Shown here piece by piece: positions 3,035 to 3,756 of a stretch of DNA of 11,964 bases. The translations under genes were made by a program, and so were the position numbers. Below the pieces are notes generated by a model. It worked only from the letters and a program-made list of their open reading frames with translations, made no database searches and was not told the DNA's origin. Where the stretch lies: UHGV virus genome UHGV-1565976; one strand, 5' to 3'. The stretch comes from a virus. How positions within the stretch are numbered: position 1 is the stretch's first letter; every line of letters begins with the position of its first letter.

Positions 3035-3082
3035 TTTGCTGCTCCTCATCATATCGACCCTGCAAGGTCGGTTGGTTTCTCC

Positions 3083-3171
3083 ACAAAACAGAGAAGAACA
3101 CCTGCGGTGGCAGCCGCCCGGGTGGATTGGGTTATGAGCCCGTCGTCCGGTGATGCTCTTCTCTGTTTTGT
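3083..3171. repeat. long inverted repeat: perfect 15-bp arms (ACAAAACAGAGAAGA / TCTTCTCTGTTTTGT) around a ~59-nt GC-rich spacer
   Basis: Arms at 3083..3097 and 3157..3171 are exact reverse complements; lies in the 5' leader of the leftward operon. Confidence 0.6.
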
Positions 3172-3218
3172 AAAAATAGCGGTACCAGCCGGAAGCAAGT
3201 GTACAAACTGGTACCGCT
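3172..3218 (-). terminator. candidate intrinsic terminator or attenuator in the leftward leader
   Basis: Perfect 11-bp stem (AGCGGTACCAG / CTGGTACCGCT, 19-nt loop) followed on the minus strand by AUUUUUA. Confidence 0.4.
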
Positions 3219-3648
3219 AAAGCAGTGGCTGCTGTGGTGACCGATGCTGATCTCCGGCTTGCGGTTATTTCAGACTCTCACGGGCGTTTAATTGCCCCGC
3301 CGAACAGCTCTTTTCCGCAATAGCTGCAATGTCTTTCGCGCATCAGCCTGCGCATTCACCACAACGCTGAGAGCACTTAGCCAGTTACGGCACCACACTT
3401 TGTCGCGGTTCCATAAATGCCCTCATCGTTGCACCCTGGTCTCTTCCCAGGCGTCAAACCGAATCGCCACGCTGGTTAGGCGTCTTATCAGCATCATCAT
3501 TGACTTGCACATTCCGGCTACCTGGTTTGTTTGCCCGAGCAAGGAGTGGATTGTCCCCTTTAACGTCACCAGACCGCTAACGACGCATGTGCCATACGCC
3601 GTGTTACAACCAAATTTTGTTAGTACCTTGTTTGTATGTCTGGAAAGA

Positions 3649-3677
3649 AAGATAAAATGAAGTTGCGCATTATGCAA
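3649..3677 (-). promoter_or_regulatory. candidate pL-like promoter
   Basis: On the minus strand: -35 TTGCAT (3677..3672), 17-nt spacer, -10 TATCTT (3654..3649); overlaps an operator-like site. Confidence 0.35.
3663..3677. promoter_or_regulatory. operator-like site, TTGC-N7-GCAA (oL candidate 1)
   Basis: TTGCgcattatGCAA; same half-site pattern recurs on both sides of the repressor gene. Confidence 0.4.
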
Positions 3678-3686
3678 GTGTTTTTA

Positions 3687-3701
3687 TTGCGAGATATGCA
3701 A
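3687..3701. promoter_or_regulatory. operator-like site, TTGC-N7-GCAA (oL candidate 2)
   Basis: TTGCgagatatGCAA, 24 bp centre-to-centre from the first oL candidate. Confidence 0.4.
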
Positions 3702-3710
3702 TTTGGTGGG

Positions 3711-3735
3711 TAATGAAAAGCCACCTTCTGGTGGC
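3711..3735 (-). terminator. candidate intrinsic terminator for the repressor gene
   Basis: Perfect 6-bp GC-rich stem GCCACC-ttct-GGTGGC (3720..3735), followed on the minus strand by UUUUCAUUA; begins 22 bp after the repressor stop. Confidence 0.5.
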
Positions 3736-3756
3736 TAATTGATGTTGAGGTAGGGG

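Follow-up and report, generated by a model that had tools for sequence, protein, structure and literature searches.

A cassette of conserved folded RNAs that separates the repressor gene from the first leftward gene of an mEp460-like lambdoid prophage

The gap between the repressor and the first leftward gene

The window analysed here, a stretch of 11,964 nucleotides (nt) from the UHGV virus genome UHGV-1565976, represents the immunity and early region of a lambdoid prophage and is ~99% identical to coliphage mEp460. Our subject is the gap between its cI-like repressor gene and its first leftward gene, where gene order is the same as in mEp460 and identity reaches 98.9% across 704 nt. There is strong support that this gap is a chain of conserved folded RNAs and not protein-coding sequence. 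Read along the minus strand, it contains the left operators and leftward promoter (OL/pL), a structured leader RNA (module A), a linker with a boxA-like motif, a transfer RNA (tRNA)-like cloverleaf (module B), an intrinsic terminator (tL) and a leader hairpin (module C), followed by the first gene. The comparative evidence presented below strongly supports modules A, B and C as three independently shuffled RNAs of conserved structure, with the intrinsic terminator between them. The minus strand folds at -142 kcal/mol versus -121 kcal/mol for the plus strand, and of the tRNA genes that lie no more than 600 nt from A or B in other loci, 79 of 79 are on the strand equivalent to the minus strand of the window.

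The region is oriented by the repressor gene (3757..4449, minus strand; Pfam Peptidase_S24 at 1e-19 and HTH_3; an XRE-family regulator in the mEp460 annotation), with cro on the plus strand at 4547-4807. The first leftward gene encodes a YfdP/SfV-orf-like protein of 120 amino acids (aa), in which neither a Pfam domain nor an arginine-rich motif was found, and is followed by genes for a DUF2303/YfdQ-like protein and a YfdR-like phosphatase. Its start at ATG 3034 agrees with the mEp460 annotation and is preceded by a small hairpin (3070 to 3055) and a GAGGAG ribosome-binding site within 3035..3072 on the minus strand. A first-pass annotation made from the letters alone had marked 3053-3756 as gene-free; the absence of genes stands, while the bounds shift with ATG 3034 to a slightly longer span, 3035-3756. 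Mechanical open reading frames (ORFs) in the gap (122 aa on the plus strand, 84 and 49 aa on the minus strand) gave zero Pfam matches, and the Prokaryotic Genome Annotation Pipeline (PGAP) places no annotation beneath ~800 full-length Escherichia coli copies of the gap, parts of which are present in 2753 of 5426 complete E. coli genomes and at ~780 places in plasmids. In mEp460, the ‘hypothetical proteins’ gp36 (window 3107-3250, plus strand; opposite C, tL and B) and gp37 (3292-3660, plus strand; opposite A) are probably spurious gene calls.

The repressor gene ends at a terminator hairpin (3719..3736, minus strand; 7 base pairs (bp), weak U-tract UUUUCAUU, -12.3 kcal/mol). Operators begin 18 nt further on, as two 15-bp palindromes placed 24 bp apart (3663..3701), and ~600 non-coding bases lie beyond them. 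The two palindromes, TTGCGCATTATGCAA (3663-3677) and TTGCGAGATATGCAA (3687-3701), match the right operator (OR) site at 4470-4484 and resemble the OR sites at 4470-4534. Across the window, the loose pattern TTGC-N7-GCAA shows no enrichment (13 found versus 9.4 expected), and the case for operators is made by the 80-87% similarity together with their placement flanking the repressor gene on both sides. An 18-codon plus-strand ORF proposed earlier exists mechanically and merely overlaps these operators. Because the operators directly follow the repressor terminator, the gap lies downstream of pL, at the position of nutL and N in lambda, and not in the slot of rexAB and other immunity-region morons to which it had first been assigned. 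Other elements named in the first-pass annotation were confirmed, i.e. the operator-like sites, a terminator-like hairpin (two are present, 3719-3736 and 3177-3219) and a long inverted repeat (3083-3107 with 3147-3171; 25-nt arms, 84% complementary, z = -6.9). The predicted pL (3677 to 3649, minus strand) has its -35 element TTGCAT within OL1, a 17-nt spacer and the -10 element TATCTT; it is read from sequence, parallels the predicted rightward promoter pR (TTGCGC-17-TAATAT) and would start transcription near 3642.

Module B, terminator tL and sRNA-17

All RNA features described from here on lie on the minus strand. Module B (3231..3365, read from 3365 to 3231) was defined by motif-anchored alignments and covariation. 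It opens with the 5' strand of a 9-bp stem, P1 (3365 to 3357 with 3239 to 3231), and continues with an AAU linker, hairpin Ha (GCGCA-GGCUGA-UGCGC, 3353 to 3338), a hypervariable arm that measures 79 nt here (3337 to 3259) and hairpin Hb (GCCGG-AGAUCAGCA-UCGGU, 3258 to 3240), with the 3' strand of P1 directly after Hb. Members of the family share a 5' motif (UGAAU-GCGCA-GGCUGA-UGCGC), a 3' motif (GCCGG-AGAUCAGCA-CCGGC-CA) and complementary P1 flanks. The window copy carries the 5' motif unchanged; its 3' motif is GCCGGAGAUCAGCAUCGGUCA, which puts two G-U pairs into Hb, and its P1 has 9 bp.

Pattern scans with the two conserved motifs returned >120 IMG/VR contigs for each motif as well as 120 species genomes; among these, the full architecture was present at 78 loci in genomes and at 202 loci in phages, plasmids or viral sequences. 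These are spread over Alpha-, Beta-, Gamma- and Deltaproteobacteria and a few metagenome-assembled genomes of other phyla. Five loci with the 20-mer GAATGCGCAGGCTGATGCGC (L345, L356, L360, L402 and L432; AGAATGCGCAGGCTGATGCGCTT...GATGTCGAT) are without P1 and coding-like, and were excluded as false positives. A single covariance model is awkward because the arm varies from 12 to 180 nt, and motif-anchored alignments were used. Across 85 distinct sequences, compared with 500 shuffles and with slid controls, 95.9% of the cells in the B stems were paired (shuffled, 82.9%; slid controls, 27-45%). Thirteen pairs had changed on both sides (8 of the 9 P1 pairs and 5 hairpin pairs), which was equalled by none of the 500 shuffles, and G-U pairs appeared in the minus sense only.

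The likeness to tRNA lies in the cloverleaf itself, with a 7-bp acceptor-like stem on a 5-bp T-like stem, a D-like arm and a predicted interaction between the side loops. The 7-bp core of P1 (alignment columns 8-14/57-63) is paired in 95-100% of sequences and the 5-bp Hb abuts it without a spacer, therefore giving a 12-bp coaxial stack as in tRNA. The two loops are complementary (GCUGA/UCAGC) and essentially invariant even among members retrieved by the opposite motif. Module B often lies within phage tRNA clusters, N-CCA follows the stem in 29 of 189 members, and a third arm of 24-26 nt gives the smallest members tRNA dimensions. In contrast to tRNA, a 3-nt linker replaces the usual 2-nt one and the third arm ranges from 12 to ~180 nt; neither a conserved loop nor an anticodon-loop signature was found in this hypervariable arm. 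A 21-25 codon minus-strand ORF suggested earlier exists mechanically but is not supported as a gene: its AUG sits within the invariant Ha loop and the following frame is unconserved in length or sequence, with 207 different N-termini among 255 family members.

Module B is found in several genomic contexts. The segment 3230-3378 has 94% identity to a stretch that adjoins tRNA-Thr/Asn in P1-like plasmids and tRNA-Ser/Arg in phage IME207, and a 45-nt core of it is shared with Ackermannviridae, the HK633 late leader and many further phages. The copy by tRNA-Thr/Asn in a P1-like plasmid (locus L005, 3001-3149) is annotated in RCS47 as ‘putative lipoprotein Plp’. In 47 of 237 members a terminator lies no more than 110 nt downstream (control windows, 22 of 358), and in 34 of 236 loci a cI-like repressor gene lies upstream on the same strand. 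Some phages carry B on its own, with an intrinsic terminator on either side. Module B also occurs in late-operon leaders upstream of lysis genes. The Pas small RNAs (sRNAs) lie in a prophage late region (bioRxiv 10.64898/2026.05.13.724894), and the setting described there for PasA and PasC of an enteropathogenic E. coli prophage (TerB, RusA, tRNAs and adjacent holin and lysozyme) is similar to that of some B loci in late leaders.

Searches of Rfam 15 returned nothing relevant in 2950-3850 even at E<=10. Two minimal B members (loci L252, 3028-3093, and L131, 4558-4629) gave sub-threshold matches to isrJ (30 and 26 bits, where the gathering score is 37), which cover the 3' half of B plus the terminator. 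These matches are probably driven by the terminator and the A-rich tail; IsrJ may still be a distant relation of the B family, but the IsrJ literature held no link to it.

In the window, B is followed by tL (3172..3219), a terminator of 14 pairs (including a 12-bp perfect repeat) with a 15-nt loop and the tract UAUUUUU. Its hairpin (3177-3219), with U5 behind it on the minus strand, folds at -22.8 kcal/mol (z = -6.5). Module C (3083..3171) begins next to the U-tract of tL and forms a stem of ~25 bp that holds two small inner hairpins. Divergent phages with the same first gene family show compensatory changes in the tL hairpin and in the stem of C, and they keep the U-tract. The first inner hairpin of C (3141 to 3129) reads GGG-CUCAUAA-CCC, with GGCUCAUAACCCAAUC conserved in divergent copies, and is identical to the anticodon stem-loop of the E. 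coli initiator tRNA.

An sRNA at this locus is already known. sRNA-17, a 193-nt RNA of a mEp460-like prophage in E. coli K1 RS218, was established by 5'/3' rapid amplification of cDNA ends (RACE) and Northern blotting (PMC7719688), and we placed it on the window via the primers published for it (full-length, RACE and Northern). With 0-1 mismatch, the full-length primers enclose 3173-3366, and the Northern oligonucleotide (plus-strand) falls at 3255-3304 with 0 mismatches. The RACE ends map to 3366 and 3173, so that the 5' end lies one nucleotide before P1 and the 3' end at tL. Judged from these positions, sRNA-17 (3173..3366) is the same element on the same strand as B plus tL, and there is strong support that B with tL accumulates as this 193-nt RNA. 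The early suggestion that the gap encodes a non-coding RNA is thus borne out by RACE and Northern data from an almost identical prophage and by hairpins that are conserved and covary across related phages. According to PMC7719688, sRNA-17 is expressed in lysogeny broth and is higher in stationary phase, it is reduced by ArcA in low oxygen, and on its deletion the bacteria grow better in blood, invade brain endothelium more readily and show changes in 48 transcripts; the authors reported only close BLAST homologs and found no Rfam homolog. That description does not include the cloverleaf fold or a family extending across Proteobacteria, nor does it treat A as an RNA or cover the arrangement of terminator and leader and the pL context.

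Module A and the linker

Upstream of B lies module A (3435..3602, read from 3602 to 3435), a structured leader RNA recognized by its homologs and by covariation. From its 5' end it consists of hairpin H1 (3602 to 3580), a long helix (UCUGG/CCAGG) that encloses a variable hairpin, hairpin H5 (3483 to 3469), whose loop forms a pseudoknot with GGUG (AACC/GGUU in the window), and hairpin H7 (3451 to 3435). Two single strands are invariant, GGUAGCCGGAAUGUGCAAG (3522 to 3504) and GGCGAUUCGGUUUGAC (3468 to 3453), the second reading GGCGAUWCGGUGUGAC family-wide. The window has this same order of elements and all five helices form. In 24 diverse sequences, with the window as row 1, 97.8% of the cells in the five helices were paired and 10 pairs had both sides changed, a result that none of 500 shuffles matched. 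In H1, a compensatory change from G-C to A-U was seen in 10 of the 24 sequences. An alternative long-range pairing from RNAalifold (GCACAU/AUGUGC), which competes with H1, was set aside since both of its strands are invariant. The G-U pairs of A occur in the minus sense only and several are invariant, which makes the minus strand the RNA strand. Module A is non-coding: the spacing between its conserved blocks falls into all three classes modulo 3, and open frames vary in strand and phase, even though most A cores are stop-free in some frame.

Two scans of IMG/VR loci yielded 201 distinct copies of module A, with homologs in P1, D6, phiV10, SPN1S, Tyrion and mEp390, as well as in Uetakeviruses and other lambdoid phages. 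The segment 3438-3615 is ~80% identical to the trnI-ban spacer of P1 and also adjoins tRNA-Arg in epsilon15-like Uetakeviruses. In P1 (locus L003, 3001-3185), module A occupies this spacer, which is unannotated. Promoter-like sites (>=9/12) lie at most 80 nt upstream in 48 of the 201 copies, compared with 7 of 674 control windows, and in many lambdoid phages with unrelated operators A begins a few nucleotides past the -10 element. In mEp390, A sits right beside the phage's own repressor gene, a position as in the window. Module B follows within 700 nt in 48 of the 201 copies. Within A, the 32 nt at 3555-3586 match a clustered regularly interspaced short palindromic repeats (CRISPR) array of E. 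coli 2012C-4502 at 100% (NZ_CP027440.1, 1868888-1868919); a host spacer therefore targets module A.

The linker between A and B (3366..3434) is conserved with Uetakeviruses, where a tRNA-Arg gene comes next, and carries a boxA-like UGCUCUC (3375 to 3369) just upstream of B. Such a UGCUCUY motif, at a fixed offset before P1 (~9 nt in enterobacterial members), was found in 42 of 237 B members and in 8 of 874 control windows. A perfect rrn-type boxA, UGCUCUUUAACAA, follows module A in some phages. Neither the promoter scan nor inspection of the sequence revealed a usable promoter between A and B, and the scan gave none in 3367-3440.

The published data on sRNA-17 also bear on module A. The ‘promoter’ fragment that phosphorylated ArcA shifts in the electrophoretic mobility shift assay (EMSA; 20-80 uM protein), 3366-3615 (PMC7719688), consists of module A plus the linker. 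In the published quantitative reverse-transcription PCR (qRT-PCR) assay, the amplicon (3220-3615) extends over both A and B; the lysogen therefore contains RNA that covers the two modules. The forward primer lies at the 5' end of A, which means that module A is transcribed. Thus, A and B appear to be co-transcribed.

A proposed early-left RNA unit and its relation to known phage RNAs

We consider it rather probable that the gap works as a non-coding early-left transcription unit that involves RNA processing and RNA action. Transcription would begin at the repressor-controlled pL or read through from the repressor gene, giving an A-linker-B precursor that is mostly terminated at tL. Module B would fold like a tRNA, with the 7-bp acceptor-like stem on the 5-bp T-like stem and the D-like and T-like loops paired, and the precursor may then be cleaved at the foot of the acceptor-like stem, with RNase P as the most likely enzyme, as for the P1 C4 and P4 CI RNAs. 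A processed precursor is favoured because the amplicon spans A and B and there is no promoter between them. Released B might act in trans via its conserved elbow and hypervariable arm, while A would be a 5'-leader element acting in cis on its own transcript. Read-through of tL would put hairpin C before the first gene, so that leftward genes would be expressed only once termination at tL is overcome. A bolder extension, for which we see somewhat less than even chances, is that sRNA-17 is the first experimentally detected member of an undescribed, Proteobacteria-wide class of phage tRNA-like RNAs and A a second undescribed class, of leader RNAs found in P1, epsilon15-like and many lambdoid phages, both acting on universally conserved host machinery (RNase P, RNA polymerase and Nus factors, tRNA-binding factors). 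If this holds, examples could be an RNA-only antitermination or anti-Rho device replacing N, or a tRNA mimic or decoy.

Several observations weigh against this proposal. The folding energies of A and B taken alone are unremarkable (z = -0.7 and z = -1.0), and the changes that back the loop-loop pairing in B are all one-sided G-U changes. Family members were gathered with exact 19-21-mers, so that the invariance of the B loops is partly ascertainment, for which retrieval by the opposite motif is a partial remedy. These loops (AGAUCAGCA, GGCUGA) are not canonical T or D loops, and ARAGORN, which detects true tRNAs adjoining A and B in other loci, found 0 tRNA or transfer-messenger RNA genes in the window and left B uncalled. 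The candidate pL of the first-pass annotation is present as a motif, but a weak one, with a consensus match of 7/12 and no call by the promoter scan. The transcript evidence comes from the RS218 prophage and not from the window DNA itself, and PMC7719688 takes 3366 as the transcription start, with an ArcA-bound promoter in 3366-3615.

The main rival explanation is RNA-only processive antitermination in the manner of HK022 put, where the transcribing RNA polymerase, alone or together with Nus factors, would be bound by A and/or boxA plus B and would then read through tL and later terminators, making up for the missing N. We regard this as unlikely, although several features of the locus speak for it. 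An N-like gene was not found, the first leftward protein being without an arginine-rich motif or Pfam domain, and A is promoter-proximal in many phages with different operators and beside the repressor in mEp390; yet put measures ~70 nt with two hairpins (PMC9378689), unlike A or B in size and architecture, and neither blastn nor nhmmer with the module A profile found a match in the HK022 immunity region, i.e. there is no sequence similarity to its pL/pR region. A strong terminator does separate pL from the first gene, but sRNA-17 accumulates as the tL-terminated product and B also stands alone between two terminators. Likewise, the boxA-like UGCUCUU at a fixed offset in 18% of B members, and the perfect boxA after A in some phages, fit antitermination, whereas most non-enteric B members are without boxA. 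The extended invariant single strands point to contacts with conserved host machinery and B sits in late-operon leaders upstream of lysis genes, but the B of HK633 belongs to a Q-controlled operon that needs no further antiterminator.

The published interpretation, in which 3366-3615 is ArcA-controlled promoter DNA only, a base-pairing sRNA starts at 3366 and A has no RNA function, seems improbable to us. It can draw on the ArcA-P shift of this fragment, the fall of sRNA-17 in low oxygen and the 48 transcripts altered by the deletion (PMC7719688), but the EMSA used 20-80 uM protein, no promoter-like site was found in 3367-3440, and the qRT-PCR forward primer at the 5' end of A indicates that A is transcribed. 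Moreover, A covaries as an RNA with strand-specific G-U pairs and is conserved in P1 and Uetakeviruses, where sRNA-17 does not follow. Decayed tRNA genes or selfish mobile DNA, e.g. a single-stranded DNA hairpin element without RNA function, would fit the independent shuffling of the modules among unrelated phages, often within tRNA clusters, as well as the cloverleaf topology of B and the CAU anticodon-like loop of C; we nevertheless hold this to be very improbable, given invariant loops on covarying stems across Alpha-, Beta-, Gamma- and Deltaproteobacteria, a stable RNA shown experimentally (PMC7719688), and terminal repeats or target duplications that were not seen. Small proteins, whether from the tiny ORFs or from mEp460 gp36 and gp37, are the least credible option: ORFs exist mechanically, two are annotated as hypothetical in mEp460 and most A cores are stop-free in some frame, but Pfam gives no matches, PGAP calls none, the indels that separate conserved blocks do not keep to multiples of three, the strand and phase of open frames vary, and the peptide after the invariant AUG is unconserved.

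The early-left RNA unit that we favour has partial counterparts in known phages. Like lambda nutL and N, it maps downstream of pL and ahead of the first leftward gene, carries a boxA-like motif and has a large leader hairpin; in lambda, an RNase III hairpin lies ahead of N. It differs in that a boxB-like hairpin and an N-like gene were not found in the window and that ~470 nt of structured RNA plus a strong terminator lie ahead of the first gene. Its likeness to HK022 putL and putR is that of a structured non-coding RNA right after the early promoter of an N-less lambdoid phage, with terminators before the early genes, but A has ~170 nt with at least five helices and a pseudoknot and B has a four-way junction, as opposed to ~70 nt and two hairpins in put. 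The C4 RNAs of P1 and P7 and the CI RNA of P4 are phage regulatory RNAs that RNase P excises from longer transcripts. Like them, B is an immunity-region phage RNA with tRNA-like features that would be released by processing and not from its own promoter. However, Rfam models of the C4 clan match neither A nor B, and no antisense target was identified for B. Elsewhere in the window, on the plus strand, Rfam places isrK (58.7 bits) and C4 antisense RNA (78.8 bits; 5809-5896) back to back within 5708-5896, inside a mechanical 382-aa ORF (5348..6496) that the mEp460 annotation gives as one ‘transcriptional regulator/antirepressor’. This looks like a Gifsy-1-type isrK-orf45-anrP or P1 immI-type locus, and the ORF is probably over-called at its 5' end. 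GOLLD and ROOL are likewise structured phage or prophage RNAs that often adjoin tRNA genes (PMC12286853), but they measure 500-800 nt, occur in other hosts and show no homology, and the Rfam models of both are unmatched here. A literature text search for the invariant 14-15-mers gave no match, and the literature on phage tRNA-like RNAs, GOLLD/ROOL-type RNAs and the P1 transcriptome held nothing relevant. The B family, A as an RNA, the cassette architecture and the pL context thus appear to be undescribed in Rfam 15, PGAP output and the literature searched.

These findings matter beyond the window, as Rfam and genome annotation lack two structured RNA classes that textbook phages carry, module A being present in P1 and epsilon15-like phages, and the hypothetical-protein calls over them (mEp460 gp36 and gp37) should be removed. 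For sRNA-17, with its reported virulence phenotypes, the conserved tRNA-like fold and the large family offer targets for mutation and leads to partners. In N-less lambdoid phages, where a strong terminator follows pL, the cassette is an obvious candidate for early-left control.

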